Shown: one piece after another, positions 12,846-64,000 of the stretch
Numbering within the stretch: the first letter of the stretch is position 1
How the letters are laid out: each line of letters begins with the position of its first letter
NCBI GenBank assembly: GCA_963802395.1
Contig: CAWDIP010000005.1
Span: 851,363 to 915,362, forward strand
Length of the DNA: 64,000 nucleotides
Direction of reading: 5' to 3'
DNA from: an uncultured Actinomycetes bacterium
GTDB taxonomy: Bacteria > Actinomycetota > Acidimicrobiia > Acidimicrobiales > Ilumatobacteraceae
Made by a program: the position numbers and the translations under genes
Notes under the pieces: model-generated
What the model saw: the letters and a program-made list of their open reading frames with translations, nothing else
The model's database searches: none
What the model was told of the DNA's origin: nothing

Positions 12846-13815
12846 GTGCCGCGCCGATGGCCCTCGTGCTCACCGTGGAGCAGCCGGTGTGGTGGGATCA
12901 CGTCACTCGAGGTCGCCGAGCGGCTCGGCGACCGGCTCGTCCCCGTCATCAAGGGCAACGGCTACGGCCTCGGCCGGGCGACCTGGACGCGGTCGGTGGC
13001 CGAACTCGGGCTCGAGCAGGTCGCGTCGGAACGGTCGCACGAACTGCTCGACGTCACCGCGGCGACTCCGCCAGCTCGTCCTCACCCCAGCCTCGACGAC
13101 CCGATCGACGGTGTTCCCGACGACGCCGTGCTGACCGTCGGTTCGCGCTCCACAGCTCGAAGCCGCACGTGCTCATCGGCGGTCCGCTGGCGATCAAGCT
13201 GCGATCCTCGATGCAGCGCTACGGGGTCGCCGCCGACGAGCTCCCAACGATGCTCGATCGCGGTCCCTGCGGCTCGACCGCTTCGTACTCCACCTCCCCC
13301 TCGCCGGCACCGACGACGACCGCGTGGCCGAGATCGAGGCATGGCTCGCCCACCTCCCCGGCAGGTATCGACGCTCTCGGTGAGCCACCTCTCGATCGAC
13401 TCGTTCGAGGCGCTCGCCGCCCGCCACCCCCGACGGCGGTTCCGCAGCTCCGCATGGGCACCGCTCTGTGGCACGGCGACAAGTCGGCGTTCCACCTCGG
13501 GTGCCGAGTCGTCAACGAGGTACGGCCCGTCACCGACGGCGCCCGCGCCGGGTATCGGCAGGTTCCCGTGCCGGTCAGCGGCCACCTGGTGATGATCGGC
13601 GGCGGGCTCTGCCCACGGGCGTCAGCCCACTCCCCGACGGGCGAAGCCCCTTCCACTTCGATCACCAGCGACTCGAGCTCCTCGAAGGGCCCCACATGCA
13701 CACCTCGATCGCTCTCGTCCCCGAGGGCTGCGCCTGCCCGACGAGTCGGCGAGGTCGTCGACGTCCAGCGTCCGCTCACCCAGGTGCAGCCCGACCGATC
13801 GTGTGGCTCCGATGA
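12846..13815 (+). CDS. alanine racemase N-terminal-domain (fold-type III PLP) protein; at least 3 frame disruptions
   Basis: LVPVIKGNGYGLGRA is the PLP-lysine motif of the Ala_racemase_N family. Later fragments (HVLIGGPLAIKLRSSMQRYGV, LRLDRFVLHLPLAG, LSVSHLSIDSFEAL, MGTALWHGDKSAFHLGCRVVNEVRPVTDGARAGYRQVPVPVSGHLVMIGGG, DGRSPFHFDHQRLELLEGPHMHTSIALVP) lie in alternating frames. Confidence 0.55.
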
Positions 13816-13845
13816 ACGCGGCCGCCGACCTCGCCGAGCCCGGTC

Positions 13846-14967
13846 GTGCTTCCCGGATTCGACGTGGTCCGCGCCACCGCACTTCATCGGTGTCGTGGTG
13901 ATGAACTACCACGGCTACCTCAACGGCGGGAGCGGTCCGAACCCCGTCGTTCGCCGAGCGGGTGTTCGATCCGTTCGTCGGGCGTGCTGTCCACCCGCTT
14001 CGCCGCCACGTTCGTCACCGTCGCCGGTGTGGGCGTGGTGCTGCTCACGAACCGCTCACGCCGGTCGGGCGACGCCGAAGCCCGCCGCCGAGACCGGTGG
14101 CGGTTGATCCGGCGCGGCGCGTTCCTGCTCGCCCTCGGGTACGTGCTCGACTGGATCTGGGCAGGCACGATCCTGTTCTTCTACGGCGCCTACTTCATCG
14201 GTGGCGGCGCTGCTTTTCACCCTGCGGATCCGCTGGCTGGCCCTCATCGCATTCGTCAGTGCCATCGCGGCGTGGGGGGTGCAGTGGTGGTCGCTCGACC
14301 GGACCCTGAATGGTCACGACACGTGGTGGCTCATCTGGAGCGGCCGGGCATCGGGCGAGGCGGCCTCGATGCGAAGCCCTCGCGACGCCGTCTTCGACGT
14401 GTTCCTGCACGGCACCCATCCCGCTCTTCCCGTGGCTCACGTTCTTCTGCTGCGGAATGATCCTGGGCCGCCTGATCCCTCACCTCACCCGGTTTCGCCG
14501 CCCGCTCATCGTCGCCGGCGTGGGCGCGGTCGGCGTTGGTTACGCCGCGGCCACCCTCTTACGCCGGGCATACGAGTTCCCGACCTCGAACCTCGAGTTC
14601 CACCTCCAGGAGCTGTCGCACACCGACCCCTTCAGCCGACAGCCGCTGTACGTGCTGACCACGTTGGGTTCGTCGGTCGTGGCGACCCTCGGCATCGCCT
14701 GGCTCGCCGACCGCTACCCCACCTCGACACCGGTCGATGTGCTGCGCCGCTCCGGGCGGCTCACCTTCACGATCTACATCGCTCCACGTCCTGGTGTTCA
14801 GAGCAGTGGTCGACGTGATGGGTTGGGTCGGCCCGACCGGGCTCGACACCGCGCTGGCCTTCGCGCTGGTGGTGTTCGGGCTGGCGACGATCGCCGGCGC
14901 CTGGTGGCAACGCGTCCGTCGGGCTGGGCCCGGTGGAACGCGATCTACCGCCGAGTTCGGGGGCTGA
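13846..14967 (+). CDS. DUF418/DUF1624-family polytopic membrane protein; several frame disruptions
   Basis: The N-terminal GFDVVRATAL-IGVVVMNYHGYLNGG motif is followed by LSTRFAATFVTVAGVGVVLL, AFLLALGYVLDWIWAGTILFFYGAYFIGG, LTFFCCGMILGRL...LIVAGVGAVGVGYAAATLL, LTFTIYI and HVLVFRAVVDVMGWVGPTGLDTALAFALVVFGLATIAGAWW. These lie in 4 frames. Confidence 0.5.
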
Positions 14968-15014
14968 TCGCTCGCCGGCTCGACCCGCGCGGCAGCTCGA
15001 GCTCGGCCGGTGGT

Positions 15015-15981
15015 TCACTCCGAGAAGGTGTCGCACTGATCGCTGGAGCCGGTCTCGAACCCCCGACGGAACCAGGTCACGCGCTGCTCGGAGGTGCCGT
15101 GGGTGAACGAGTCGGGGTCGACCCGGCCGCCCGACTGCTTCTGGATCCGATCGTCACCGACCGCCGCGGCGGCATTGATGGCCTCGTTGATCTCGTTGGC
15201 GTTGTCGAACTGGTCGCGGGCGTTGGCGTCGTGGGCCCACACCCCGGCGAGGCAATCGGCCTGGAGCTCGAGTCGCACCGACAAGGCGTTGGCCTGCGAC
15301 GGGTTGCGTTGCTCGGCCTTCGTCGGACCTGGTCGCTGATCCCGAGCAGGTTCTGGAGGTGGTGCCCGTACTCGTGGGCGACGATGTACTGCGCGGCGAG
15401 ATCGCCCGTGGCTCCGAACTGGTCCTGGAGCTGGACCAGGAAGTCGAGATCGAAGTACACCTTCGAGTCGGCCGGGCAGTAGAACGGGCCCATGTTGGCG
15501 ACGGCCGATCCGCAGCCGGTGGTCGGTCGCCGCCGCTGAAGAAGACGGTCTTGGCGAACTCGTACTGACGGCCGGCCGCCGTGAACGTGCGGTCCCAGAA
15601 CTCCTGCACGTCTCGCTGCCCGCCGCAGATGATCTGGGCGATCTCGGTGTCGCACGGTCCCGAGCCGGCGGCGCCGCTTCCGGCGGCAGCCTCGGCTCGG
15701 CGTCGGGCGCCAAGCCCGACCGATGGCACATCGGCGGCTCGACGGCCCCGGTGCCGGCGCCGCGCGAGCAACTTGGGCAGGAACGCCACGGCGAGCACGA
15801 GGATCAGACCGAGCAGCCCGCCGCCGGCCTTCATCGGGATCCCGAGGCCTCCGCCGCCACCGCCACCGCCGCCCGACCCATCGGGAACGGGAAGCCGACT
15901 GCCTCCTCCGCCCCCGCCGCCACCCTGGCCGCGGCGGTCTTCGATCATCGAGTCGTTCCCGGACTCGCGGATCTTCGTCAC
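15015..15981 (-). CDS. YpfJ-family putative neutral zinc metallopeptidase (Zn_peptidase_2); 2 frame disruptions
   Basis: A Gly-rich N-terminus plus TM segment (GGGGGGGGSRLP...GGGGGGGGGLGIPMKAGGGLLGLILVLAV). Then FYCPADSKVYFDLDFLVQLQDQFGATGDLAAQYIVAHEYGHHLQNLLGI (the HExxH-type HEYGHH zinc motif), QANALSVRLELQADCLAGVWAHDA, and the C-terminal GDDRIQKQSGGRVDPDSFTHGTSEQRVTWFRRGFETGSSDQCDTF. Confidence 0.7.
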
Positions 15982-35464: not shown

Positions 35465-36259
35465 TCACAGGCGCTGGGCGGTGCGGCCCATCATGGTGTT
35501 CCGGTAGATCACGGCGAACGAGCACAGGCCGAACGAGGTGAGGGCGAACTGCAAGATGGCGCCGAGGATCGGTCCGAGGACCGGGATGACGCCGAGGATC
35601 GTCGCGATCACCGCAGCGGCGATCAGCAGGCCGAGGAACACGAGGAACACGAGAATGATGTTGCCCGATTGCTCTTTGACCGCCGCGAAGCTGGCGCCCA
35701 GCGGGTTCTCACCGTCGGCTCGGCGTTCCATCGCGGCGAACGGAACGAGACAGAGGAAGAAGGCCGCGATGAGCCCCGGCAGGACGCACAGCACGAGCCC
35801 GATTGCCACGATGATGGCGGCCACGATCGACCAGAGCAGGTAGGCACCGGCCCGCGAAGTGGCCTGCTGGAAGAGCGCCCCGATCGCCATCGGCTCATGG
35901 TCGACAGCAGCCAACGCCAACCGAGTGGTGGCGAGGGAACCGATGATGCTGACGACCACCGAGATCGCGGCCACGAGCAACAGACCGGCAGTCTCCGGAT
36001 CGTCGCCATTGATGAGTGCTCCGAGCAATCCGTTGATCACCCCGACGATCACCGCAACGATCACGAAGTCCTTGAGTCGCGCCCGGAACGCCGCCCAACC
36101 GCGGCTCAGCACCGCCCCGACGCTGAGCGGCCCTTCTCCCGGGGCAGGCGGTTGGTACATGCCGCCGGGCGGAATCGGTGGGGGCGGCGGCGGCCCGGGC
36201 GGCGGCGGGGGCGGCGGCGGCCCGGGCGGCGGCGGGGGCGGCGGCGGCGGCATGCTCAT
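35465..36259 (-). CDS. membrane protein with proline-rich N-terminus (PPPPPPPPPPGPPPPPPPPGPPPPPP) and 6 predicted TM helices
   Basis: About 264 aa. MSMPPPPPPPPPGPP...GMYQPPAPGEGPLS is followed by hydrophobic helices (FVIVAVIVGVINGLLGALING, LLLVAAISVVVSIIGSL, and others). The Pro-repeat is encoded by a GGC/GGG tandem DNA repeat. Confidence 0.55.
   Translation of the reverse strand: MSMPPPPPPPPPGPPPPPPPPGPPPPPPIPPGGMYQPPAPGEGPLSVGAVLSRGWAAFRARLKDFVIVAVIVGVINGLLGALINGDDPETAGLLLVAAISVVVSIIGSLATTRLALAAVDHEPMAIGALFQQATSRAGAYLLWSIVAAIIVAIGLVLCVLPGLIAAFFLCLVPFAAMERRADGENPLGASFAAVKEQSGNIILVFLVFLGLLIAAAVIATILGVIPVLGPILGAILQFALTSFGLCSFAVIYRNTMMGRTAQRL
36179..36250. repeat. tandem ~27-bp GC-rich repeat (GGGGCGGCGGCGGCCCGGGCGGCGGC x ~2.6) encoding the poly-Pro tract
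   Basis: Direct repetition is visible in the sequence at 36181-36250. Confidence 0.6.
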
Positions 36260-36436
36260 GTAGTGGGTCCTCCCTGGTGACGACAGGCGAAGGCTAGGGC
36301 ACCGACGGACGAGGACCGAGCACCCGACCACCGAGGCACCCATCGGATGTCGTGGCCAACGAGCGGAAGGCAAGATCCCGATCGGTCGACCGACAGAGTC
36401 CGTTGAACGAATGCCGAATCTGCCGATTGAAACGGT

Positions 36437-38755
36437 GTGGCACGACCAACCGAGCCGAGCGCGGGAGCATCGGGCTCTCATCGCGACGCGATCAGTGCCG
36501 CGGCGCGAGTCGCCTTGGCGACCCTGTGGGCGCTGACCATCCTCTACACCTGGTCGGTGCTGTACGTCTCGCGGCCCGAATCGGGATACAGCACTTTGTG
36601 GGAAGGCGTGGTGGCCAAGGTCCTGTACGGCGGCGCCGCGCTCATCGTCTTGATCCGGGCGACCCGGTTTCGTCGCCAACGCGCCGGCCAACTTGCGCTC
36701 GGACTCGGGTTGACGTCGAACGCGTTTGCTGACCTCTGGTACACGTTCTACGAGCAGAACCTCGATCCGATTCCGTTTCCGGGCTACTCCGATGTCCCTT
36801 ACCTGCTCACCTACGCCGGCTTGGCCGCCGGAGTCGTACTGATCTTCCAGGCCCAACAGCGCCGCAACACCGCCATGATCCTCGACGGACTCATCGTTGC
36901 ACTCGGGTCTGCGGCGGCGGCCGCCCCGTTCGTCTTCCAACCAGCACTCGCTGTCTCGGGCAGCCCGGCGCAGGCTGCGGTCGGACTCGCGTATCCGCTC
37001 CTCGACCTCTTGATCATGATCCTGTTGGTTGCGTCCGTCGCGTCCAACGGCCATCGACCGTCTCCGTCGGCCTTGTGGCTCGCCGCCGGCGTACTCGCGT
37101 TCGGCGGAGGTGACATCGCCTACCTGACCGCGGTCGAAGCCGAGACCTATCTTCCCGGCACGCTGATGGACGTCACCTGGATCGTCGGGGTGATGTGCTT
37201 GGCCACGGCCGCCTGGTCGCGCACCGCCGTCCGTGGTGGGTCGGGCGGCGACACCCACATGAGCCTCTCGCTGTTGCCTGTGATCGGCGCGACCATCGCG
37301 CTCGTCGTTCCGACGATGCAGATCTTCCTCCATGTGCCGCCCATCGCGATCGTGCTCGCGGTGCTCACCGTCACGGTGGTTCTCATCCGCCTGGCGTTCT
37401 CGTTGCGCGATGTCCGCCGATTGCTCGTGGTCTCGCGGCAGGCCCGGACGGACGAGCTCACCGCACTACCGAACCGGCGAGGATTCTTCGAGCTTCTCGA
37501 CCGTTGTCTGCTCGAGCGATCCGGACTGGCGGTGCTCCTGTTCGATCTCGACGGGTTCAAGGAGATCAACGACTCGCTCGGTCACGCCGCGGGGGATGAG
37601 CTCCTTCAACGGTTGTCCACCCGCGTCAGCAATCGGATGCCCGCCGGCACACACTTCGCTCGGCTCGGCGGCGACGAGTTCGCAGCCATCTTGCCGGTGG
37701 GGAACGAGACCGCGGCGTTCGAGGTCGCCACCGCGCTGGCCGGTTGGTTCCGCGAACCTGTCGCTGTGGAAGGAGTACCGGTCAGGGTGGGCGCGTCGTG
37801 CGGCGTCGCGCTCGCCCCGCTCCACGGAACAGCTCGTAGCGACTTGCTCCGGGCCGCAGACGTCGCCATGTATCAGGCCAAGCGCACCCTCACCGGTGGG
37901 GTGATCGTCTACCAGACCGACGCTGATCCCCATGATCGTGACCGACTGCAGCTCCTGGAGGAGTTCCGGGTGGCGCTCGATGCCCAGGAGTTCGTCCTCC
38001 ACTATCAACCGCTCATCTCCTTCGCCGACGGATCGGTCTCCGGCGTCGAGGCACTCGTCCGCTGGGCCCACCCGACCCATGGTCTGCTGGCGCCGCTGTC
38101 TTTCATTCCTCTCGCCGAGCGCGCCGGCCTGCTTCCACGCCTCACGCGGATCGTGGTGGAACAGGCCGTCGCCTTTGCCTCGACGTTCGGCACTGCTGAC
38201 GGTGATCTCGCGGTCAGTGTGAACATCTCGGTGCAAGACCTGCTGGACGAGGCCCTGCACCATGCGGTCACTTCGGCGCTCCAACGCCATGGAGTGGACG
38301 GTCGGCGACTCACGCTCGAGATCACCGAAGACGCACTCGTTCGCGACCCTGAACGGGCCCGCCGGCTCCTGCGCCCGTTGCGGGTTCTGGGAGTTCGGGT
38401 TGCGGTCGACGACTTCGGCACCGGCTACCAGTCGCTCGGTCAACTCCTCGCGCTGGACATCGACGAAGTGAAGCTCGACCGCTCGCTGGTCGCCGATGTC
38501 GCCGACAACCCGCGTTCACAGGCGGTGGTTCGAGCCATGGCGTCGCTCACCCGATCGCTCGGGCTGGACCTCGTCGCCGAAGGCATTGAGACCAGGGAAG
38601 CCCTTCAACAGCTGCGCGAGCTCGGCTGCACCATTGCCCAGGGCTTCTTCCTCGCCCGACCGCTGCCCGGCAACGATCTCCATGCCGAGATCGAGCGGCT
38701 GATTGCTGACGACCCGATGGGTCACCGCGTCACCTCGGGCGGCCCGGCTCGCTGA
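36437..38755 (+). CDS. integral-membrane sensor GGDEF-EAL c-di-GMP signalling protein
   Basis: Intact 772 aa. About 8 N-terminal TM helices (a MASE-like sensor), GGDEF with RLGGDEF, and EAL (EALVRW...EITED...DDFGTGYQSL...KLDRSLV). Confidence 0.85.
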   Translation: MARPTEPSAGASGSHRDAISAAARVALATLWALTILYTWSVLYVSRPESGYSTLWEGVVAKVLYGGAALIVLIRATRFRRQRAGQLALGLGLTSNAFADLWYTFYEQNLDPIPFPGYSDVPYLLTYAGLAAGVVLIFQAQQRRNTAMILDGLIVALGSAAAAAPFVFQPALAVSGSPAQAAVGLAYPLLDLLIMILLVASVASNGHRPSPSALWLAAGVLAFGGGDIAYLTAVEAETYLPGTLMDVTWIVGVMCLATAAWSRTAVRGGSGGDTHMSLSLLPVIGATIALVVPTMQIFLHVPPIAIVLAVLTVTVVLIRLAFSLRDVRRLLVVSRQARTDELTALPNRRGFFELLDRCLLERSGLAVLLFDLDGFKEINDSLGHAAGDELLQRLSTRVSNRMPAGTHFARLGGDEFAAILPVGNETAAFEVATALAGWFREPVAVEGVPVRVGASCGVALAPLHGTARSDLLRAADVAMYQAKRTLTGGVIVYQTDADPHDRDRLQLLEEFRVALDAQEFVLHYQPLISFADGSVSGVEALVRWAHPTHGLLAPLSFIPLAERAGLLPRLTRIVVEQAVAFASTFGTADGDLAVSVNISVQDLLDEALHHAVTSALQRHGVDGRRLTLEITEDALVRDPERARRLLRPLRVLGVRVAVDDFGTGYQSLGQLLALDIDEVKLDRSLVADVADNPRSQAVVRAMASLTRSLGLDLVAEGIETREALQQLRELGCTIAQGFFLARPLPGNDLHAEIERLIADDPMGHRVTSGGPAR

Positions 38756-49818: not shown

Positions 49819-50412
49819 ATGAACCACGAGATCCCACCCACTCCAGCGGCCGCTCGTCACCGGTGGGTCGCCGCGGCGTTCACCGATCGGGTGCGTCACG
49901 TCGAAGACACCGCGAGCTGGGACGCGCCGACACCCGTTGCCGCTTGGGTGGCGCGAGATGTCGTGGGCCACCTGGTCGAGTGGTTTCCGCCGTTCCTGGC
50001 CGCGGGAGGCGGCGAGCAGCTGCCAGCCGGTCCCGCAGTCACTGAAGATCCGATCACCGCGTGGGTCACGCAGTGCGATGCGATCCAGGCGCTCCTCGAC
50101 GACCCAGAGGCCTCGGCGCGTGAGTTCAGCCATCCGATGCTCCCACCGCTCCCCTTGGCCGATGCGATCGACCGCTTCTACACCGCCGACGTGTTCATGC
50201 ACACCTGGGACCTGGCCCGGGCCACCGGACAGGACGACACACTCGACGACACGTTCTGCCAGGAGCTGCTCACGGGCATGGAGCCGATCGACGACGTCCT
50301 GCGGCAGTCAGGCCAGTACGGCCCCCGAGTCGCCGTCGCCGACGATGCCCCCGTCCAACACCGGCTCGTCGGTTTCATCGGCCGCGACCCGAACTGGAGC
50401 CCAGCACAGTAG
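49819..50412 (+). CDS. DinB/YfiT-like (TIGR03086 family) protein, paralog of 38797..39351
   Basis: 197 aa. VAAWVARDVVGHLVEW...FYTADVFMHTWDLARATG has the same architecture as the 38.8-kb paralog. Confidence 0.7.
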   Translation: MNHEIPPTPAAARHRWVAAAFTDRVRHVEDTASWDAPTPVAAWVARDVVGHLVEWFPPFLAAGGGEQLPAGPAVTEDPITAWVTQCDAIQALLDDPEASAREFSHPMLPPLPLADAIDRFYTADVFMHTWDLARATGQDDTLDDTFCQELLTGMEPIDDVLRQSGQYGPRVAVADDAPVQHRLVGFIGRDPNWSPAQ

Positions 50413-50456
50413 GGCTGGCCAGGACCCTCGACCCCGGCCCCGGCCCCGGGCGATCC

Positions 50457-51688
50457 TCAGGACAGATGCTGCACCGTTGCGAGGAGCCGGTCGAGTTCGT
50501 CGGTGGTGTTGAAGTAGTGCGGCGAGGCGCGCACGACCTCGGCGAAACCCTTCGCATCCATGTCGAGCGCAGCCCACATCGCCGTCGATGCGTTGATGGT
50601 GATTCCTTCACGCTCAGCGGCCGCGACGATCTTGGTCGGGCGAACCCCGTCAACGGTGAACGTCACGATCGCGCAGCGCCGTTCGGCAGTGTCGGCGACC
50701 GTCACCCCGGGCAGATCGTCGAGCCACGTCGTAGGTAGTCGGCGAGGATCTGAACTCTGCGCTCGATCGCGTCGATGCCCACAACACGCGCTTGTGCTGC
50801 GGCCGACGCAAGGCCCACCATCGCGGCGTAGCTGACTTCGTACTCCTCGAATCGCGCCATCCCCGGACGGGTCTCGAGCCCCGAGGCCGGCGACCAGGAG
50901 GTACTGGTCGCATCGACTCCCGGCGGTCGAAAGCGCTCGACCAATCCGGCATCGACCCAGAGCATGCCTGTTCCACGGGGAGCACGAAGGAACTTCCGGC
51001 CGGTCGCGGTGAGCACGTGACAGCCCAGTTCGGTCACATCGAGCCGCATCTGACCGAGCGCCTGGCAGGCGTCGACGAAGAGCGGAACGCCGGCCGTCGC
51101 CGCACGTACTCCGAGGCCGGCGATCGGATTGACACTTCCGCAGTGCGTGCCGATCATGGTGGCGCAGATCACGCTCACGTCCGGACCGATCTCGAGCGCG
51201 TCGAGATCGATCGTGCCGTCGGCGAGCGCCGGCATCACCTCGATGTCGAACTCGGCGATGCGCTGGGTGCTGGCGAGGGCGGCGTAATGGGAGTGATACA
51301 CGAGTCGATCGACGAGCACCGTGCTACCGCCGGGAACGTTGTCGCCGACCACCCAACCCCACCAGGCCTTGACCCACGCCACGCTGTCGCTCGAGGTGAG
51401 GGCGATCTCGGATGGCTGCGCCCCGACAAGCGCGGCCAGGTCGACCCGGCCCTGCCGGAGGACATCGACGACTTCGTCGGCCGCCGAGTATCCACCCACC
51501 TCCGCCTCGCGGCGAAGGTGACCGATCACGGCATCGAGGGTCTGCTGCGTCGGTAGGGATGCACCGGCCGACAGCAGGAACGTGCGCCCATCGCACCCCG
51601 GAGTGGCGGCACGGGCCGCAGCTACATCGATCTGAGAACCTTCCACAACGGCAATCCTGCCAACCGATGGACATCGCTGCGAACCCAT
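50457..51688 (-). CDS. class V aminotransferase-fold PLP enzyme (cysteine desulfurase / epimerase-like); one frame disruption near 50700
   Basis: A 328-aa ORF (DACQALGQMRLDVTELGCHVLTATGRKFLRAPRGTGMLWV carries the PLP-Lys region). It continues in another frame with AERRCAIVTFTVDG...HYFNTTDELDRLLATV. Confidence 0.65.
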
Positions 51689-51785: not shown

Positions 51786-54333
51786 ATGCTGCTCCGGAAT
51801 GCTCGTGGGGGGCCAGGTGCGACGGTGCTGAGCATGACCGGCTGGAAAACGACGGTGACCGCCAGGTCTGAGCTCAAGAACCTGGCGAAGGCCGCCGAGC
51901 TCTACACGCGCGTTCGGGTACGGACCGACGGGACCAGTGTTGCCGGAGCGGGTGACCCCGACCCGATTCACATGTTCAAGCTGTTCAACCTGTCGGGCGT
52001 CGACTACAAGGGGCAACTGTCGAGCGGCTACGGCGCGGGCGGGTTCGGCGTCAACGTCACGACCGGAATCGATCTCGGTTCGGTTCTCGGCCCTGGTCTC
52101 ATCACCCTCAAAGCGATCATCAAGGGCGGCGGAGTTCGAGCGGATCACACGCTGCTCGTCTGCACCCGATTCCCCATGGCGCTGTACGAGAACTCGATCA
52201 CGAGCCTCGCACTTCCGCCCGGCGTGCCGCGCTGGAGAACTTCGAAACCGCTCGTCCTCGCCGTGCTGCATGGTGTCGCGTGGCAGGGAACGCTCGAGAC
52301 GAACGCGACCGCGGCCATCGGGGTTCCCGATGCCATCCAGACCGACGAGTTCGGACTCGGCATCGCTGCCGAGGCATCGGCCACGGCCATCGGCGACGTC
52401 CGCATCGTCGCGCTGGTCGACCGTAACGCCCGCGTCTTCGACGAGCGCCCGGGCTCCAGCCGTGTCGTCACCGCAGGAGCGGGCGCCGCCACGGCCTACG
52501 ACGGCAGCCTCGCCGAAGCCGTCGACTTCGCCCTCATCGGCGATCTCAAACAACGTGTGGCCCGCTGGATCATCGCGAGTTGGGCGGAGCGAGACTTCAA
52601 CCATCGCACACCCATCGTCATCGAGCTCCTCGTCGTCATCGAGCTCCTCGTCGTCATCGAGCTCCTCCTCGTCGAGCGGGTCGGCGCGGATGCAGCGCAT
52701 CCGCAGAGATCTTGCGGAGTTCGGCATCGGCTCCGACACCGACCCGGAGACGAACGCGGGGGATATGGACGCTGCGGAGTTCGAAGCCTTCGAGGTCGAT
52801 GACTCGCGTCCAGGCGAGACCGCGATCGATGAACCCGGAGCCGAGGAGCCAAGAACCGACGACGAGAGCACCTCGTTCCTCGGCGACCGCGCCAAGTCGT
52901 TGCTCGGAGACAAGGCCAAGTTGATCGAGTCCGAACCGGTCAAGGACGCCATCACCAAGGTCAAGGAGTGGTTTCGCTCGAGGAAGGGGACAGAGAAGCT
53001 GCAGTCGAGGCTCGACGACCTCAGGTCTGTCCTCGTACTCGAACAGGACTCCGCCGCCCACCTTGCCACGCTCGAGCAGTTCAGCCAGGCCCTGGGCGAG
53101 CGCGAGATGGCGAAGGGGAATGCGAAACGGGCGGCAAGAGCCGCAGGCGGATGGAACAACCTGGTCAAACGGATGAACAGCTCCACCGCCCCACCGGCCG
53201 TCCTACGACTCAGCTCGCGCACGTTCACCGGCAACCTTCATGGCTCCACCGGCATCGAGATCGGCAGCCTCAAGAAGCAGCTCGATCTCCACGGCGAGGG
53301 AGACCTCGACTACCTCCGCAAGTGGGTGAAGTACCGCTTCCAGATCCCGGCCGCCAAGGGCCGCGACCACCTGGTGATGACCCAGGACACCGTCGTCAAC
53401 CATCACCTGTTCACCGCCAAGGTTGCCGGAAAGGCATCGTTCGGCGACCGCTCCGTCAAGCCGCCGGTAGACGACGAGAAGGAGGCCGAGGCGCAGGACG
53501 AGGAGAAGGCAGAGGACGAGGAACAGGCGCCCGACAAGAAGGAGCTGGGATCGGGTGGGCGGTCCAAGACCTACGGCACCATCACCTATCGCTCGGCGAC
53601 CACGTACTGGCTGGCGTCGGACAAGTCGACACTGGCGTACCCGAATGGCAGCGGTGTGAGCTTCGGCCTTTCGATCAGCGCCGACCGCCTGCTCGACTAT
53701 GCCGCCTGGTGCGCGGCGCATCCCGACATCGGGCCCGATGACGACGCACTGAAGAAGACCGAGGGCTACCTCTCGTCGCAACTCCGGGTCGAGACCGCCT
53801 CGCTTCGCAAGTTCTTCGCCCGTTTTCAGTTCGAGGCAGGCCCGAAGCCCGACACGGACGGCGAGATTTCCGGCAAGCACCTACCGGAGGTCGCCCGGCC
53901 GCTGCTGGTGGAGTCCTCGTTCGCATTTCGTGAGACGACACCGCTCGTGATGCGCCCGGGAGCGCGACAGGAACCGGAGGATCTGTTCGAGAAGCATCAG
54001 CCGACCAGGGACCGTCTGGAGAAAACCGATCCAGGTGAGCTGGCGAACTCGTCGCTCCAGGCGCTGCGAATCCGTTACCCGCTCGGCGAAGCGGAGAACG
54101 CCACGAAGCTCTATTCGATCGGGATCAACTTCCTGATCGTCGCGTCGGTTGCGGCCGGGCGGGTCAGCGAGGTCGGCTCGGTCGGTTCGTTCGACCTCCA
54201 CACCGAGTTCTTCCCCGATCTGATCAAGGCGCCACCGGCCGACAAGACGGCGCGGCGCCAATGGGAACGCGACTACGTCTCGCAGTTCGAATTCGCGGTG
54301 CCACCGGTCGCATTGTTCGGCGACACGTCGTGA
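51786..54333 (+). CDS. large hypothetical protein A (~850 aa as reconstructed): N-terminal beta-rich domain, poly-Ser linker encoded by an 18-bp tandem repeat, acidic disordered region, C-terminal helical domain; no family recognised. A frame change lies inside the repeat.
   Basis: Frame 1 reads coherently 51786-52620 (...LIGDLKQRVARWIIASWAERDFNHRTPIV). Frame 2 reads coherently from the poly-Ser through 54333 (SSSSSSSSSSSSSSSSSGSARMQRIRRDLAEFGIGSDTDPE...FEFAVPPVALFGDTS). The start codon choice (ATG 51786 or 51834) is uncertain. There are no enzymatic or NTPase motifs. Confidence 0.5.
52613..52672. repeat. 18-bp tandem repeat CATCGAGCTCCTCGTCGT x3 (plus partial unit); encodes poly-Ser in one frame, IELLVV in another, and DDEEL on the opposite strand
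   Basis: Direct repetition seen at 52619-52636, 52637-52654 and 52655-52672 (the third unit has one substitution). It coincides with the frame switch in protein A. Confidence 0.7.
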
Positions 54334-57300
54334 GCTACGACACCATCGTCAGCGACGTGACCACGGCACTCGGTGACCTCGGTGCGGCCTTCGACGTCAC
54401 CGCCGACGGGTTGCGCCTGCGAGAACCCGTTGGTGGGGCCGACCTCGTCGCCCTCATCGGCGGCGCATTCGGTCGCCCGCAGCTCGTGCCGGACTGGATG
54501 CCGTCGGGGGTCCAGCTCGATGTCTTCGCGATCTCCAAGGCCGGTGAATCCGTCGACCTGCACGTCACCGCCAGCCACCAGGGAGTGTGGAAACCGTTCC
54601 CCGAGCTGACCGTGACGACCTGTTCGATCACCCTGGTCGAGGCGAACGGAGCGTTTGCGGGGATGGTTCGCGGCGCGGCGATGCTCGAAGATCTCGATCT
54701 CGAGCTCCTCGTTCAGTTCGAGGTGCCGTCGGAGGTCTTCCTCATCGAGCTGTCCTCGCCTGCCGATGCCGACCCGGCGGGCGCACAGAAGATGCTCGAC
54801 ACGCTCGGGATGGTGCACCACACGAGCCCTGACGGCGGACCGGTGCTGGTGGACTTGTCGCTCACCGGTTCGATCGCGCTCGGCACGTATGTGATCCATG
54901 TCGAGGCGGCAGATCTCCTGCAACTGCCGGCCTTGACGATCGCCCGGGTGATCGCTGACGCCCGTTTCGGGGATTCGACCAGTGTGTCGGTGTTCATCGA
55001 GGCCCTCGTCGGCGACGGGATCGACATCGAACTGCTCGGCGAGATCACCGCCGACGGATGGCTGCTGCGCGGCGCGTTGAGCCTGCCAGGCGAGGGTTTG
55101 AGCATCGGCGCGTTCGCCGCCTCGCTGGCCGGTGGTGACCCGCCTCGGCTCCCCGAGATGATCTCGTCGCTCGCCCTCGAGGAGGTCGACATCACCGTCG
55201 ACACCGCGGAGCACCTCGTCGCGTTCCACTGCCGGTTGACCTGGGAAGGCAACCCACTCGACGTCGCCATCGAGCACCGGCCCGACGGGTTCAGCGCTGT
55301 CGGCAAGCTGCATGTCGGCGACTGCGAGTTCCTCGTCGCCTTCGACTCCGATGAGAGCGGGGGCACGCTCGTCGGCGCGTTCTCGGCCGCCTCGGGCAGC
55401 CCGCTGTCGGTCGCTCACCTCGTCCAGGCGCTGGGCACCTCCGACCAGATTCCCGGCGCCGAGCAGCTGCACATCGAGATCGAGGACGCCGCCATCGCCC
55501 ATGGTTCCGTTGCGGACCAGCCGGGCGAATGGCTCCTCGGTGCCGACCTCGGGCTCGGCCTCGACCTCGCTGCGCTCCGGGGACTCCCGCTCGTCGGGGG
55601 AATGCTTCCGGCCGGCCAGTCGCTGAAACTGGCATTCGCTGTCGGGGCCAGGAGCGACTGGAGTGAGGCTCATCTCACCACCGTCACCGGACATCTCCCT
55701 GCGGCGTTCGCGGTGCCGAAGGTTGCCGACACCCTCACCTTTTCGGGCGTCCTCGACGTCGGCGGCGACCCGATCCACCTCGACTTCCCGGCGCCCCACG
55801 AGAGGGCGCTGCCCGCAGCGCAGCAGCCGCTCGCTGCTCGCGAGAAGCCCGCGACCGGCCCGGGCACCAGGGCCGGCAACGCCGACACGGCCGGCCCCGG
55901 GGCGCCGCGGCCCGCCACCGACTCGATCAGCTGGCATGCGGTCGACCGCTCGTTCGGTCCTGTGCACATCAGCCGCGTCGGGCTCGGCTGGGACGGTGAT
56001 GCGCAGGAGGTTGCCATCGCTCTCGACGGCTCGCTCGGCCTGGGTGGCCTCACGCTCTCGCTCCAAGGATTCGGCGCTCACTACCGCCTCGCCGAGCACG
56101 ACCTGCACGTGACGCTGTCCGGGCTCGGCCTCGATTTCACCAGCGGCCCGGTGGAGCTCTCCGGCGCGTTCCTGAACGTCGACGGCGACTTCGAGGGCAG
56201 GGTGCTGATCCGCACCGAGCAGGCGACCATCACTGCCCTCGGTGCGTTCACGACGATCGACGGTGCCCCGTCGATGTTCGTGTACGGGCTGCTCGACTAC
56301 CCGCTCGGCGGGCCGCCATGCTTCTTCGTGGAAGGCCTCGCGGCGGGCTTCGCCTACAACCGTGAGCTCCGCCCGCCGACGCTCGACGGGGTGCGAACCT
56401 TCCCACTGGTCGTCGACGCGATCGGCGCCGCCGGCGGGAACACGACGCCGACCGACCCCGGCGCCCAACTCGCGGCGCTGCACGAGTTCGTCCGTCCGTC
56501 GCTCGGCCAGAACTTCCTCGCCGTCGGGGTGAAGTTCAACTCGTTCAAGCTGATCGACAGCTTCCTGCTGCTCGTCGTCAGCTTCGGGAACACGCCCCAG
56601 ATCGATCTCTTCGGCTCGTGCACCTACCAGTCGCCCCCTGGCGAACTGGCAGAAGGTACGCCGGCGCTCGTCCACGTCGGTCTCGACTTCGTCGGGCATC
56701 TGCCAGTGGAAACCGGTGAGCTGCAGATCGAAGCCAAGCTGACCAACGGCTCATACGTTTTCGACCCGAAGTGCGTCATCAGCGGCGGATTCGCGTTCTA
56801 CAGCTGGTTCAAGGGTGAGTACGCCGGCAGTTTCGTGCTCTCCATCGGCGGCTATCACCCGACGATCCACCCTGAGACGCGAACACCGCGCTGGCCCATC
56901 GTCCAGCCGCTCACCCTGCGGTACAACCTGAGCGACGAAGTGTCGATCACCGGCAGCGTGTACCTCGCCCTCGCCCCCTCGATGATCATGGCCGGGTGCG
57001 CGGTCAACGCCACCGCCAGCATCGGTTCGGTCGAAGCGGGCTTCTCGATGAGCCTCGATTTCCTCGTGATCGTGGGAGCCGTACCACTACTCGATCGACG
57101 CCCACCTCGACATCTACGCGCGCTGGAAGTGCTTCAGCACCCACGCTTCGGCGACCCTGTCGATCAACGGCCCAGAACTCGCCGGGTACGCGCGGGTGAG
57201 CTGGAGCGTGTTCGACTTCGACATCCATTTCGGCACCTCGAGGAACAACGGTCCGACGCCGATCCCGTGGGACGGCGAACGCGGCTTCCAGCCGAAGTTC

Positions 57301-57930
57301 CTCCCCGACCCAACTGCGATCCATTCGACTCGCTCCGTCAGCGGGATGGTTTCGATGCTGGTGCCGGACGGGTCGTCGGGCACTTGGTGGGTGATCAATC
57401 CGTCGGAGTTCGCGATGGAGGTGTCCACCGCGATTCCCGCCGGGCGGTGCACGTTCGGCGACACGTGCATGACCAGCGATCGTGACCCGATCGGGATCGC
57501 CCCGATGAACCGGCTCGACGGGGTGACCTCAGAGCTGCGCGTCGCGGTCCAACGCCGCATCGAGGCGACGTGGCGAGATGTCTCCGACGAGTTCAGCACC
57601 ACTGCCGTTCACAGCCGCTTCCCGTCGGCCCTCTGGGGCACGACGTTTCAACCCACGCTCGATCAAGTCGGCGACACCGTCTCGGCAATCGGGGGCCTGA
57701 TGATCGCTCTCGGCCAGGGGATGCACGTCCAACGTGGCAATGCCGAGCCTCGGGGGATTGCCGGCTTCGCCGACGGCAACGTGATCGACCTCCCGCGCCA
57801 ACCGTGGCCCGACGTCGGCGATTGGGCACTCCCCGGTGACGTCTCCGGAGTGCCGTGGTTCAGCGACCACCTCGGCGATCTCGGGTTTTCCGCCGCGCGA
57901 TCTGTCGGTCGGTCCCACGTTCGGCGATGA
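54330..57930 (+). CDS. large hypothetical protein B (~1200 aa; Gly/Leu-rich DLGLG-type repeats, beta-rich); one frame disruption near 57065-57085; no family recognised
   Basis: GTG 54330 overlaps the TGA of protein A (GTGA). A coherent ORF runs to ~57070, where the translation degenerates into Arg-rich junk. A coherent continuation sits in the adjacent frame (EPYHYSIDAHLDIYARWKCFSTHASATLSINGPELAGYARVSWSVFDFDIHFGTS...) through 57930. Confidence 0.55.
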
Positions 57931-57978
57931 CATCCCGTTCGAGCGTCCGGGACTCGACAACCAGGGGCAAGGCTGCTG

Positions 57979-59908
57979 ATGCCGGACGAGGACACGCCTG
58001 CACCGACGAGTTCGCTGGCCCCGCCGATGGGCCCCGACGACGTCATCCGCTTCCACGCGAGCCATCGTCCGCAGCTGCTCGACGGCGATTACCGGGTGAT
58101 GGTCGTCCACCTGCTCAGCGAAACGGCCCGGGACCCGCAAGGCGACAACGCCAGGGATGTGACCACCGAGCATCGCTTTCCCCAGGCGACCGGGGCCGAG
58201 ATCGACGGCTTCGGCGACGCTGATGTCGGCCAACACTTCTGCGTCGCCGGCCCACGGTTCAGCCTGCAACCGTCGGAGGTCCACTCCGTGTACCCCCCGC
58301 CGGGCACGAGCGGCGATTTCAGCAACACGTTTCCGCACGTCGTGTTGACCAGACCGACCTTGCCGTGGGAGCGCACCGCTACCTACCGGGCCGAACCCGA
58401 TCCTTCCCAGCGTGACGACACCGGCGCACCGTGGTTGGCGGTGCTGCTGTTGGAGGACGGCGAGATTGCCGAACCGGCCAATCGGATCACCGTCCATCAG
58501 ATCACCGTCGGCGACTTCTTCACCGGGGCGGCCGGAATTGCGCCGCCGCTGATCAGGCCGGCAACGTCGGATGACCTCGCCGATCCGATCCGGGTACTGG
58601 ACATCAACCTCGGCTTGATGTCCAGCCTGCTGGTCCCTGCCGCCATCCCGTGGCTCACCCATGTCCGAACGATCGGGCCGGCGCATGACGCCGCCGATCG
58701 CGACGTCGAGTCGGCCACCGTCGTCGCCAACCGGATGATCCGGCCCGGACGCCGCTACGAGGCGCATCTCGTGTCGATCGAGGAGTGGATCGAGGACGAC
58801 CTCTGGCGGCTCAGCGACCATGACCTGACGGTTCGGATGGTCAGCCTGCACAGCTGGACGTTCGGTTGCGACGATGGCCCGAGCTTCAAGACCGAGGTCG
58901 GCAACCTGAGGGCCCGGCGGATGTCGTTGGACAGCTCGAACAAGGGGCTGTCCGCGCCGTATCTCGACCGCGGCTTCGTGCCGCTGCGCCACGAGTTCCG
59001 CAATGGCGACCGGGCAGTGTCGTGGTACCGAAGCCCACTCTCGCCGTACGGGGCAGAGACGATCGACGTCGACGAATCGAATTGGTCGGCCGTGCGATCG
59101 TCCGACGCGCTGCGGCGGTTCGACCGGGCGTCGGGCATGTACGACGTCAGCTACTCCGCCGCCTGGGAGCTCGGCAGGCTTCTCGCCCTCCATGATCCAC
59201 TGATCGGGCTCCGCCTTCACCGCTGGAAGCGGGATCACGCCCGGCACGAGCAACGCACGTCGGTGCTCGGCGCCCACCGGGACCTGCTCCTCGCTCCCCA
59301 CGAGCCGGTCGAGCCGGTGCTCGATACCGCCCTGACGAACTGGTTCATCACGCAGCTGCACCGGCTCGGGTCAGTGCCCTACCGCTATCTGGTCCCCGAC
59401 GACGACCTGGTGCCGACCCGAGCAACTGCAGTTCTTCACGGTCGATCCGCTCTGGATCCGTTGTCTTGCCGACGGGGCGTTCAGCGTCGGACGGATCAGC
59501 CAGGCCGACGCCCAACGGGACGACCTCCTGGCGGAGCTCTTCCTCGCCCCAGCGTCGCAACTCCACGGATTCATCCTCCGATCGCGCATCCTCGTCGACT
59601 ACCCGGGATTGATGATCGACGCGACCGGGCCCGACGGGCTTCCCGCGGCGATCGCCCGCATCGCCCATCTCGCCCCCGGTCTGCTGATCGCACTCTACGA
59701 ATCGTCGATCGGTCAAGTGTCACTGCACCTCCACCCCCAGGTGGTCCATTTCGAACTCCCCGACGTGGAGCTCTGCGGGTACACCAATTCTGATGGAGTC
59801 GTCGATATCAGTTCGCTCACCGCGGCCGCCGGCAGCACCGATTCCGGCGAGCTCGCCTGGGTGTTGCAGGCGCCGATGCACCGCGCCCGATTCCACGTGG
59901 AGGCATAG
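57979..59908 (+). CDS. large hypothetical protein C (~640 aa); one frame disruption near 59410; no family recognised
   Basis: ATG 57979 with an upstream AGGGG. Coherent to ...YRYLVPDDDLVP, then the continuation is in the adjacent frame (EQLQFFTVDPLWIRCLADGAFSVGRISQADAQRDDLLAELFLAPASQLHGFILRSRILVDYPGLMIDATGPDG...FHVEA) ending at TAG 59906-59908. Confidence 0.55.
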
Positions 59909-62900
59909 GTGACGACACACATCTTCGTCCCGCTGCGGGTCGATGCGCTGGCGACCAGCCGGCCGATCTCGGTCGTCAGCCCGACCGCCGACGTGACGTC
60001 GCTGCCCTGGTTCGACGGCACCCGTGATCGCTTCGCCGAGATCCCCAACGTCGCCAGTGCGATCAACACGGAACCCTTCGCCGACCATGCTTTCCGACTC
60101 GAATCAGGTGTCCACCTCCACTGGACACTCCCCGAAGGTCTCACCCGTGGCGCGGCCAGGCGCGCCTCGAACGACAACGACATCAGCGAGACGGACATGC
60201 CTGGCGGGGTCGACCTCGGCGACTTGACGATGCCACCCGCTCCGAACCGTTGGCTGGTCCGTCGCCGATCGCCGTCGCCGGCCGAGTGGTTGGTGGAGAG
60301 CGACTATGTCCACGATCGCCACGATGAGGCCGGGCGGGGCTCGATCGCCTTCCAGCTGATCGGTCAGCCGTCGACTTTGGCGAATGGGGAGTCACCGCCG
60401 AGTCCGCCGTTCGTCAGGATCGGCCGGGTCACCCCGCTCGACGACACGACGGTCGCCGCTGTTCTCGGCACGGCCGAGCAGGTGGGGGACGCGTACCTCC
60501 CGGACATCGATCGACCGCTCACCGCACTCGGGCATCACGATCCGACATTCGCTGCGCTCTACCCCAACTGTCATGGCGTGTTCGGGTTGCACGACGAACT
60601 GCACATCTCGTCGGCGAGCGGTGGGGGCGACATCACCTACGACGTGCTCGGCTGGTATGGCGGCGGCGCGCAGGATCCGCTGACCGCGTTCCTCGAGCGC
60701 GAGCTCTTCGTGCTCGACATCGACGCGGTCAAGGCAATCGTCAACCGTGAGCGAGCCACTCACCGACCGAAGCCCCTGCCGCCCCTTCCCGACGGCGACC
60801 CCACCGATGCCGAGTTCGGCGAAGCCCTGAGAATCCGGATCCGGCAGCGATTCGGGTGGCACCTCGACGACATCGCCACCATCGTGCCCGACCGACACGT
60901 GGCGCACCCTGTGCTTTGGCCAGGTCGTCGTCTCGCCGGAAGGATGGCTCCAAGCCCAGCCGAAGTCCGAGATCACCTCTGCCGCGGTCGCAGTCGGCAA
61001 CACGACGGCCGAAGCGGTGGCTGCGTTCCTGGCCGCCCGTGGCACCGACTCGGTCGACGCCGACGTCGAGCGACGGATCACCGCGCTCGAACTCGCCAAG
61101 CCGATCCTCCACGAACATCTCGACTTCGGAGCAAAGCTCGGAGCAGCCCACCACTCAGCCCGCTTCACGCCCGTGTCCGGACACCGTGTCTGGACCTTGC
61201 GGCCTCGCCCCGCCACCCCCGTCGTGGAACGGACGGGCTACGAGGAGGCCATCGGGCTGCCCGCCGATCTCGCACTCGATCTCGACCAGCTCAATGTCGA
61301 CCAGGCCCAGATGGACGCCTACGCCGACGATCTTCGCTCGCGCTGCCAGGAGTTGTTCGCTGACTGGCATCGGCTGATGGTCGCTACCTATCCGCCGCGT
61401 TCCACCGATCCGATCGGCATCGACCTCGCCGCCCTCGGCAACTACCTCGTGCGCAACCATCTCGAGCCACTCGAGGCCGATCGGGCGCACGTCGCCTCGC
61501 TCGCGGATCGGGTGGCGAACCGCTGGTGGCGGATCACCCGAGACCTCGACGCGTACAACGCGACCGCGCGAGCCAATCGATCAACTCGGGCTCGAGACAT
61601 GTCCCGGGCCCCGGTACTGGCGGCCGAACGATCCCGTCGTGCTGCTCGCCGGAGCCGATGCGGTACCGCCGACGCGCCACGGCGTCGATCTCGTCGACGG
61701 TGCGCTGCCATGTCGGTGCGGATCGATCTGGCCGGAGTTGCACGACCACGACACCTTGTACCCGTGGGACGACCCCGACCCGGCGTTCATGATCGCCCGA
61801 TCAGCGGTGACGACACCGCCATGGAACCCGCTCCTGATGGAATGGGAGGTCGAGGTCCTGGCCCTTGCAGAGGGGTGCAACGGACACGCCGGCGACCCGC
61901 GATTCGACCCCTCGCCATACCAACGGTCATTCATCACGACGAACTTCGACCTGCCCGTCGGTCAACCCGACCTTGCGCGCCGTGTCAGGTTCGGACTGGC
62001 GGCCAGTGGATTCGAGTATCTCTCCGGCCGTTCGATCCTCCACCCCGGACCGGTGAGACGACTCGCCGACCTGCTCCAGGCGGCCGACCCCGACAACGAG
62101 TTGCTCCTCGATCTCGAAGCACTCGCCGGCGCCGTTGCCCAACCGCTGGTCGGTTTCCACGAGGGACTGCTGATGCGCCGGGCGGAGCCGCAACTCGCCA
62201 TCGAGGACCCGCTCGGGTTCGCCGACAACCAGGCGCTCGCTGGCCGGGTTCGCGACGCGGTCGGTGACGTTCACCCGGACAGTCCGGTCGCCGGCGCCCC
62301 GTTCCACCCGATCCGCACCGGCGAGATGGTCATCGAACGCCTCCGGCTGATCGATTCGTTCGGCCAGACGCGCGAATGGCGTCCTGAGGCTGTGCTCGGC
62401 TCGTCTGCGATGGGAGGTAGTGCCGGGGGCGATCGGGTGAGCCTTCCGCCCCGCATCACCCAACCGGCCCGAGTGCACGTCCGATGGCTCGCAGCGGAGC
62501 ACGACGATGTGACGGTCAACGATCACCCGGCTACCACACCGATCTGCGGGTGGTTGCTCCCGAACCTGCTCGATGAAGCGATCGATGTCTATGACACCGC
62601 CGGCAGGTTCGTCGGACTGATCGACGGCGATGGTCGATGGCGGCCGGCACCCGGTCTGTTCGGCGCACCTCGGGGTCCTGACGAGATCGACAATCGGCAC
62701 CTGGCGGAGGTCGTGCGCTGGTTGCTCTCGACGATCCGCTCACCGCACCCCGAGCAGGAGGCGGCGCTCGGTCTCGAGTCGCCGGCAACACCCGACGTCG
62801 TGATCGGCGCTCTGATCGACCACATCGAGACCGCGCTCGACACCATCGAGCCACTGGACGGCGCCGGCCACCAGAGCCGGGCACTGCTGATCGGCCGACC

Positions 62901-63810
62901 GATCGCCGTGGTTCGCGCCCGACTGGATCTGCAGTTGCTCGGACGACCCGCGTGCGACCAATCGTGGGAGCATCTCCGCCATCGCTTGTTGGGCAGGCCG
63001 CCGAGCGATCACGGCTTCACCGAGGTCGAATTCGCGGTGCGGATCGGTGAACACCAACAGTCGAACGATGGCACGGTTGGCTATTGGGTGACCGACGGCG
63101 CCGGGCGACTCACCGGCCGGCACCTGCGTTTCACTCACGACGAAGGACCCCCGACCGCGATGCTCACGTTGGCGGGAGCCCCGATCGACCTCACCGTGCT
63201 GCTCGACCCGCGTGCGGTGATGCACGTGACGTCGGGCGTGCTGCCTACGACATCGATCGGGATTCCTCCCGCACTGTGGGCCCCGGCGCTCGATGGCCTG
63301 TCGGCGTCGTTCCTCTCGGCGCCGATCCTGATGCCTGCCGAGGAGATCGCCGTCCCACTGCCTCGCGAGCCGAGCTGCTCGTGGTCCTGGTCGCAACGGG
63401 TGGGCGGCCGCTGGATCGAGGTGGCTGACCGGCCGACGGTGGAGTACTCGGCGATGCTCGACGCCTTCCCGGAGCCAGGCAGGGCCCAAGCGGTGTGGCA
63501 GACTGCGCTGCGGACTCGAGTGCTCGAACCCGACCCGACCCACCCTGCTCGTGCGCTGTTGTCGCTCGACGCGTCGAACATGCCGAAGGGGTCGGGCGCC
63601 GACGGCCCGAAGCCCGCGACACTCGACGAGGACACGCTCCACGCGCTCCACCGCATCGCCACCTACATCCGCCCGGCGCTCATCGAGGCCACGTTTGGCA
63701 AGCCGGCCGTGATCCGCGAGGGTTGGCTGCAGCTACGCAGCACCTTCGCCGACGGCACCCGAACGCCGCCGCATGCCCAAACGGCCAACGACTCATCGGA
63801 GGGTTTGTGA
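59909..63810 (+). CDS. large hypothetical protein D (~1300 aa); frame disruptions near 60900-60935 and 61555-61570; no family recognised
   Basis: GTG 59909 follows the previous stop immediately, with GGAGG 5 nt upstream. There are three coherent frame segments (59909-~60920; ~60900-~61560 including AAFLAARGTDSVDADVERRITALELAKPIL; 61560-63810). No Walker or HExxH motifs. Confidence 0.55.
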
Positions 63811-64000
63811 TGACGAGCCCACTGGGTGGAGCACTGGAATTCGCGTTGGAGAACCGCGCTGGTCGGGCCGAGTTGAACCTCTCCGATGGGCCCCAATCGC
63901 TCGTGTTCGTGATCACCAACCGTTCGAGCGATTCGATCGCCACCCGGCCGGGCTCCACGCTCGTGGTCGGGTTCCGTGCCGGCACCCTGCGCAGCCCCCA
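63810..64000 (+). CDS. hypothetical protein E, 5' end only (truncated by window end)
   Basis: ATG 63810 overlaps the TGA of protein D (TGATG). MTSPLGGALEFALENRAGRAELNLSDGPQSLVFVITNRSSDSIATRPGSTLVVGFRAG reads coherently to the window edge. Confidence 0.4.
   Translation, partial: MTSPLGGALEFALENRAGRAELNLSDGPQSLVFVITNRSSDSIATRPGSTLVVGFRAGTLRSP

Follow-up and report, generated by a model that had tools for sequence, protein, structure and literature searches.

A co-conserved operon of very large proteins with a DUF6603 subunit, a candidate effector-delivery or conflict system

We analyzed a 64,000-nucleotide stretch of DNA (the window, below) from an uncultured bacterium of the Ilumatobacteraceae (assembly GCA_963802395.1, contig CAWDIP010000005.1, positions 851,363 to 915,362). 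We found that, from 51.8 kb to its end, the window carries an operon of translationally coupled genes for large proteins, here called A through E, and that the genes are conserved together: more than 20 loci, representing at least eight bacterial phyla, combine B, C and D with an E-like protein. The gene position just upstream of B is variable among loci (we call it the slot), and many relatives of E are fibre-like. It is possible, and we propose tentatively, that A-E form one self-contained multi-subunit complex, a new type of apparatus for effector delivery or conflict. A first-pass annotation of the window, made from the sequence alone, had suggested an undescribed multi-protein system for delivery or conflict rather than metabolism. 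That suggestion held up. The genes are co-conserved across phyla, and profile searches gave no match to Tc toxins, extracellular contractile injection systems (eCIS), the type VII secretion system (T7SS), RHS proteins or known defence families.

Layout and conservation of the operon

Coding signal is wholly on the + strand from 51.8 kb to the end of the window, which has a G+C content of ~67%. The genes are as follows.

51786..54333, + strand: gene A, 848 amino acids after correction, in two pieces, 51786-52613 (frame 0) and 52615-54333 (frame 1), from the frame plot and the open-frame map
54330..57930, + strand: gene B, 1199 amino acids after correction, with an N-terminal region and a C-terminal DUF6603 domain
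55941..57315, + strand: DUF6603 domain of B, from Pfam and the AlphaFold2 model
57979..59908, + strand: gene C, 641 amino acids after correction
59909..63810, + strand: gene D, 1299 amino acids after correction, with two frameshifts
63810..64000, + strand: first 63 codons of gene E, whose full protein is expected to have ~700-760 amino acids

Five same-strand open reading frames (ORFs) had been described from 51786 to the window edge, the first four with ~850, 1200, 640 and 1300 codons. Five coding units are present, and the sizes agree with those obtained after joining frame pieces. However, none of A-D is a single open frame in the sequence as given, and the sizes are not found there. The gene junctions, re-read in the sequence, are as had been described. 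The GTG start of B at 54330 overlaps the TGA of A (GTGA), the GTG of D at 59909 abuts the TAG of C at 59906-59908, and base 63810 is common to the TGA of D and the ATG of E (TGATG). A gap of 48 nucleotides lies between B and C. GGAGG-like ribosome-binding sites precede D and E, and no promoter or terminator signal above chance was found inside the operon. As also reported in the first pass, A-E appear to lack signal peptides and transmembrane helices: none of them has a hydrophobic segment or an N-terminus resembling a signal sequence. Scans of the window for Rfam families and tRNAs gave no matches.

Searches of Pfam, NCBIfam, PADLOC and PHROGs with all ten frame pieces gave a single match, DUF6603 in B. 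DUF6603 is the only curated family in the operon and has no known function; literature searches for DUF6603 and PF20248 found no paper naming either. The frame-0 piece of B matches the family (PF20248) with 321.7 bits (gathering cut-off, 27; E = 1e-95) over profile positions 1-368, and the frame-1 piece matches positions 372-460 with 42.9 bits. The earlier description of the proteins as lacking known families does not hold for B, which belongs to DUF6603. A, C, D and E have relatives as well, all of them unnamed.

The DUF6603 domain of B is predicted to be a very large antiparallel beta-meander sheet (AlphaFold2 model m93bf6ac61255; over residues ~530-1130, the block means of pLDDT are mostly 80-95). 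The beta-solenoid suggested in the first pass was not shown. The N-terminal region of B is poorly modelled and is partly beta-hairpin. The B model gave TM-scores of ~0.1 against the viral structures in BFVD, and neither C nor the DUF6603 domain of B, both modelled with high confidence, matched any solved or viral fold. When profiles of the A, B, C and D families were searched against PDB sequences, no match was significant. B does not qualify as an outer-membrane beta-barrel protein, which would need a signal peptide, a closed barrel of matching topology and a host with an outer membrane.

C has 109 homologues, all labelled hypothetical. They come from Acidimicrobiia, Micromonospora, Streptomyces, Pseudonocardia, Cellulomonas, Leptospira, Longimicrobium, Pyrinomonadaceae, cyanobacteria and five ascomycete fungi. 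B and C are fused into one protein in other genomes (L006, P0114; L and P numbers are our identifiers for loci and proteins), suggesting that C is likely a partner of B. D is the largest conserved subunit and matched nothing in Pfam, PHROG or PDB sequences. In homologues, a single uninterrupted D ORF accounts for the matches of all three of its frame pieces. In the loci examined, a gene of the E family directly follows D wherever both are present.

A genome-wide scan with B found 18 loci, in Bacteroidota, Cyanobacteria, Proteobacteria, Anaerostipes and Chthoniobacterales. Among the ORFs of these loci, clustering identified four families that recur: B, C, D and one that we call F2. These co-occur in L001-L016. 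The gene order is either D-F2-(slot)-B-C or, as in the window, B-C-D-F2. In Micromonospora it is D-LamG(F2)-MBL-B-C, where MBL is a metallo-beta-lactamase fold protein. Two sets have operon proteins that are 39-55% identical to those of the window:

L020, from a metagenome-assembled genome of Acidimicrobiia: A 704, B 1211, C 604, D 1250 and E 695 amino acids, the full operon
L022/L023, from a metagenome: B 1241, C 600, D 1293 and E 760 amino acids

B is 49% identical to the B of L020, and D shares 50-55% identity with its counterparts in L020 and L022. In L020, E is followed by genes for an ankyrin-repeat protein, a serine recombinase and a TetR regulator, and in L022 by small ORFs. Because these genes are unrelated, we conclude that the operon ends at E. 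Partner genes (NTPase, nuclease, secretion) had been expected beyond the window; in both relatives the operon instead closes with an E protein of 695-760 amino acids. A is followed directly by B in the window, in L020/L021 and in the distant L026. In the organism of L019 and L023, A and B lie on two contigs from the same sample, from which we infer the link. The one-strand order A-B-C-D-E was found in the window, as the full set in L020/L021, in L019 together with L022/L023, and as A then B in L026.

B-C-D are present in the same order on pSCL4, the 1.8-Mb megaplasmid of Streptomyces clavuligerus ATCC 27064 (L028, 1611344-1641329). In the ascomycete Hypoxylon texense (CP156178.1, 1606701-1630124; L025), a DUF6603 gene, D (1366 amino acids) and C (1068 amino acids) lie within ~14 kb, and fungal homologues of C are also found in Nemania, Glonium, Aspergillus tanneri and Podospora. 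The ascomycete cluster looks like a cross-kingdom transfer of a multi-gene module. Phage origin or carriage was considered and rejected: there were no relatives of B or C among 2.9 million IMG/VR viral contigs. A filamentous or multicellular lifestyle appears common among the carriers (Streptomyces, Micromonospora, Kitasatospora, Embleya, Trichodesmium, Gloeotrichia, Saprospiraceae, Lewinella, Promineifilaceae and ascomycetes), with exceptions such as Leptospira, Anaerostipes and Paenibacillus.

The slot upstream of B and the E/F2 family

A consists of an N-terminal domain, a poly-Ser and acidic disordered linker, and a C-terminal domain. The bipartite layout described in the first pass, with its poly-Ser and acidic stretches, is present in the joined sequence. 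P0002, a single ORF of 761 amino acids, is 39% identical to A end to end, over both pieces, and the 704-codon gene of L020 is 39-43% identical. A word-indexed search had given the impression that A was an orphan. An exhaustive phmmer search with P0002 as query overturned this, finding 165 cluster representatives at E <= 1e-3, mostly of 650-850 amino acids. No member of Pfam, NCBIfam, PADLOC or PHROG matched A. A match to Cry6Aa among PDB sequences (E = 0.017) was dismissed because it lies in a helical low-complexity stretch.

The A family occupies the slot in operons of the Acidimicrobiia type. Elsewhere the slot holds recognizable enzymes. An MBL-fold protein with a THxDxDH motif is found in five loci, as a separate gene in L001, L004 and L024 and fused to the N-terminus of B in L012 and L015 (Lactamase_B match in L012, E = 1.5e-11). 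The slot protein is a subtilase in L002 (6.6e-37) and an endonuclease/exonuclease/phosphatase (EEP) family protein in L008, and alpha/beta-hydrolase domains are found within DUF6603 proteins of 3000-3600 amino acids. A hidden Markov model of the A family did not detect the slot proteins of other phyla, indicating that these proteins are analogous by position and not homologous. A conserved core with unrelated hydrolases exchanged at one position is the pattern of effector-carrying systems. The lack of enzymatic signatures noted in the first pass is thus true of the window copy but not of the slot in other loci.

Metagenomic DUF6603 proteins of 2800-3600 amino acids are numerous (P0116, P0121-P0143), with DUF6603 near residue 2100-2900; one source labels them 'large repetitive protein'. 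Alpha/beta-hydrolase-type domains lie upstream of DUF6603 in P0116 and P0122, which we scanned, and in P0135, from precomputed Pfam results. In L020, an unannotated protein of 551 amino acids is encoded upstream of the A gene (1921-3576), with a small opposite-strand ORF between the two. It has two C-terminal hydrophobic segments and a SHRWE-type motif, and has no counterpart upstream of A in the window.

The 63 amino acids of E in the window are 47-49% identical to the N-termini of the E proteins of L020 (695 amino acids) and L022 (760 amino acids). The N-terminal motif of E is common to members of F2, and the L020 and L022 proteins match the LamG protein of Micromonospora. By sequence, then, E belongs to an E/F2 family that is fibre-like in many relatives. 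F2 proteins have 570-1140 amino acids, and members of E/F2 contain Laminin_G_3 domains. In one member a C-terminal domain matches phage tail-collar fibre families (PHROG, 4e-32), and the F2 family profile matches Bd2133 (PDB 8ond, 3e-8), a prey-recognition fibre of Bdellovibrio (PMC10769870). Trimeric repeats or a tail-collar C-terminal domain were found in relatives from other phyla and were not detected in E of L020 or L022.

Frameshifts in the window copy

Five single-site frameshifts break A, B, C and D, as determined from a plot of third-position G+C (GC3) and a stop-to-stop map. The sites, and a repeat at the first of them, are listed below.

~52570-52690, + strand: frameshift in A, frame 0 to 1, at the poly-Ser repeat
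52615..52673, + strand: 18-nucleotide tandem repeat of 3.3 copies coding for poly-Ser (Tandem Repeats Finder)
57068/57073, + strand: frameshift in B, frame 0 to 1, located by tblastn with intact homologues
59415-59426, + strand: frameshift in C, frame 1 to 2, located by tblastn with intact homologues
60700-60903 by tblastn, ~60895 by motif alignment, + strand: first frameshift in D, frame 2 to 0
61571-61585, + strand: second frameshift in D, frame 0 to 1, located by tblastn with intact homologues

In homologues, each of A-D is one continuous ORF that can be aligned over every junction. Thus, A-D are single genes and the frameshifts are internal to them. The joined pieces contain 0 stops in 4,050 corrected codons, and the DUF6603 profile, which ends at position 368 in one frame of B, resumes at position 372 in the next. 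The public protein collection holds broken ORF products from the deposited 946,672-nucleotide contig (P0001, P0293 and P0294; 522, 723 and 1051 amino acids); for A only the 522-residue piece was called (P0001), and for D only the 723-residue piece (P0293).

Assembly errors most likely account for the five frameshifts, and the organism itself probably has an intact operon. The neighbouring gene upstream, which is unrelated to the operon, is also frameshifted. It encodes a class-V aminotransferase (cysteine-desulfurase-like; 50350-51688, - strand, divergent), and near 50.72 kb its frame changes, such that residues 80-332 of PDB 6wci align in one frame and residues 339-417 in another. A second broken gene suggests that the assembly is prone to insertion and deletion errors, which are then the likeliest cause of the frameshifts in the operon. 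A short-read contig from an independent sample (Logan ERR11593397; L027) corresponds to window positions 52638-56580 and is 99.85% identical, with 6 mismatches and no insertions or deletions over 3.9 kb. It covers 0 of the 5 frameshift sites and is weak evidence about them. The contig ends exactly within the 18-nucleotide poly-Ser repeat, indicating that this repeat is hard to assemble and is likely the site of the frameshift in A.

The alternative is that the operon is a decaying pseudogene array in this genome, with real frameshifts and no functional complex made from this copy. Five frameshifts within 12 kb would fit such decay, as would the presence of the frameshifts in the deposited contig, the broken products on record and junction sequences without obvious homopolymers. 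We consider decay quite unlikely. No piece has a nonsense codon or has lost similarity, GC3 is high throughout in the correct frame, the adjoining cysteine-desulfurase-like gene is disrupted in the same way, and L027 shows no insertion or deletion where it overlaps the operon, although that overlap includes none of the sites. Gene-level findings from this assembly need frame correction before interpretation.

Other parts of the window may be affected as well. Between 8000 and 21000, and especially between 10788 and 13982, G+C is 70-75% (66-69% elsewhere) and there are many short frame switches. Over a 3.2-kb stretch of this block, the frame model could assign no coding frame clearly. The block also includes overlapping same-strand ORFs in chains (8584-10600 and 12857-15482), which may be more frameshifted genes, and a Creatininase fragment matching only profile positions 71-130. 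In addition, a (GGC)n / 27-nucleotide tandem repeat (36176-36251) lies just upstream of a 774-codon open frame (36431-38752).

Possible function and comparison with known systems

The set of genes and their co-conservation, together with the fusions, the fibre-like domains and the variability of the slot, lead us to infer that the products of the operon may assemble into one complex and deliver a payload to a site of action. B, the giant beta-sheet protein, and C would act as a unit. D would be a large scaffold, always together with E, and E would be a fibre-like subunit that binds carbohydrate or another surface and directs the complex to its target. The slot protein, or the domain fused to the N-terminus of B, would be the exchangeable payload: the A family here, and an MBL-fold protein, EEP protein, subtilase or alpha/beta-hydrolase elsewhere. 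B-C might serve as a holder for the slot protein or as its route across a barrier, and the slot protein would then do the damage, as in a toxin-type conflict. The apparatus would be released without a classical signal peptide.

Several observations weigh against an apparatus of this kind. No secretion, lysis or ATPase gene is conserved near the related loci, and since A-E also lack signal peptides and membrane segments, export is unexplained. No immunity-like small gene was seen. The predicted fold of B has generic beta-sheet matches only, so a pore or shell role for B is conjecture. Searches of Pfam, NCBIfam, PADLOC and PDB-sequence profiles revealed no recognizable enzymatic fold or motif in A. 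The E proteins of L020 and L022 have no direct fibre matches, and the window holds only 63 amino acids of E. The S. clavuligerus locus has no homologue of F2 or of a slot protein within 14 kb by tblastn. Finally, if the frameshifts were real, the window copy would be dead.

The operon resembles several known systems in part. Like the Tc (ABC) toxins (TcA/TcB/TcC), it encodes several very large subunits together, without signal peptides, and has receptor-binding modules on a big scaffold and a large beta-sheet protein beside an exchangeable enzymatic payload. Both also have homologues in fungi; a fungal Tc complex has been reported (PMC13236867). Unlike Tc toxins, the operon has no Pfam match to VRP1, TcA_TcB_BD, SpvB, TcdB_mid (TcdB_toxin_mid) or RHS/YD repeats, its payload is upstream of B or at the N-terminus of B and not at the C-terminus of an RHS protein, and it has a separate fibre-like subunit. 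We therefore do not assign it to the Tc toxins. It shares with eCIS and tailocins (Afp, PVC and the Streptomyces cytoplasmic contractile injection systems) a self-contained operon of structural proteins, tail-fibre-like targeting proteins, exchangeable effectors, the lack of classical secretion and an occurrence in Streptomyces, cyanobacteria and Bacteroidota. In contrast to those systems, neither the window operon nor the annotated related loci have genes for a sheath, tube, baseplate J/gp25 (gp6/J), spike or AAA+ ATPase, no relatives were found in the 2.9 million viral contigs, and B is unlike viral structures. It is not an eCIS by these features.

E/F2 members with a tail-collar domain, Bd2133-matching repeats or LamG, a domain typical of fibre tips, recall phage tail fibres and the mosaic adhesive trimer (MAT) fibres of Bdellovibrio. 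This likeness is limited to one subunit, and the conserved core of E/F2 is a different, unannotated domain. As in polymorphic toxin and defence systems, the core of the operon is conserved while unrelated hydrolases (MBL, EEP, subtilase, alpha/beta-hydrolase) or A are exchanged at one position or fused. Unlike those systems, the operon has no RHS, LXG, WXG, PAAR or VgrG trafficking domain, no adjacent immunity gene and no PADLOC family. The marks of a T7SS substrate or polymorphic toxin (WXG100, LXG, PE/PPE, RHS) were absent: there was no such Pfam or NCBIfam match and no small conserved downstream gene. The ten protein pieces gave no match in PADLOC-DB 2.0 at E <= 0.01.

The complex might act inside the cell that makes it, as a defence or regulated cell-death system. 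E together with D, B and C would sense an invader (phage or mycovirus) or stress, and the variable enzyme would kill or arrest the cell, as in abortive infection. In filamentous organisms, cell death can involve contractile systems located in the cytoplasm, and many hosts of the operon are filamentous (Streptomyces, Micromonospora, Trichodesmium, Saprospiraceae, ascomycetes). An intracellular role would also accord with the absence of signal peptides and export genes, with a slot repertoire (nuclease-type MBL, EEP, protease, lipase-type hydrolase) that is usual for defence effectors, and with an occurrence in fungi, which have other immune modules in common with bacteria. Nonetheless we regard it as unlikely. 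Besides the lack of a PADLOC match, there is no NTPase or other usual sensor or switch domain, the neighbourhoods are metabolic or regulatory and not defence islands, and a defence system would not usually include more than 4,000 amino acids of non-enzymatic protein. In addition, LamG domains and tail-fibre tips normally bind surfaces from the outside.

A further alternative is a surface or extracellular scaffold that delivers no payload, in which fibre tips would attach to prey, hosts or polysaccharide and the enzymes would be accessory and degradative. LamG, Ig-like and fibre domains, very large beta-sheet proteins and surface-associated, algicidal or predatory hosts such as Saprospiraceae, Lewinella and Tenacibaculum are all compatible with such an adhesive assembly. 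We think it quite unlikely. No signal peptides, sortase/LPXTG signals, C-terminal domains of the type IX secretion system or anchors were seen, the fungal proteins are without secretion signals, and the fusion of enzymes to B and the swapping of unrelated enzymes at a fixed position suggest cargo. A complex that carries an effector is the reading that we prefer.

If that preference is right, and we hold it as a possibility still short of probable, the DUF6603 operon would represent a new class of conflict machine in many bacterial phyla and in ascomycetes, one whose enzyme is deployed either in other cells or, as a form of regulated cell death in filamentous organisms, against its own producer. 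Its folds would be without solved relatives, and it would have no known component for secretion or energy coupling. The system can be tested in culture: B-C-D are on pSCL4 of S. clavuligerus ATCC 27064, an industrial strain that is genetically tractable, and this module is also present in cultured strains of Micromonospora, Tenacibaculum, Lewinella and Leptospira. It would be a widespread undescribed machine of more than 4,000 amino acids per set in at least eight bacterial phyla, with three of its parts clustered in fungal genomes and with core proteins that have no solved structural relatives. It would add a new entry to the large architectures for toxin and effector delivery (Tc, eCIS and those like the type VI secretion system), provide a new source of modular payload carriers, and be a case of a multi-gene module transferred between kingdoms.

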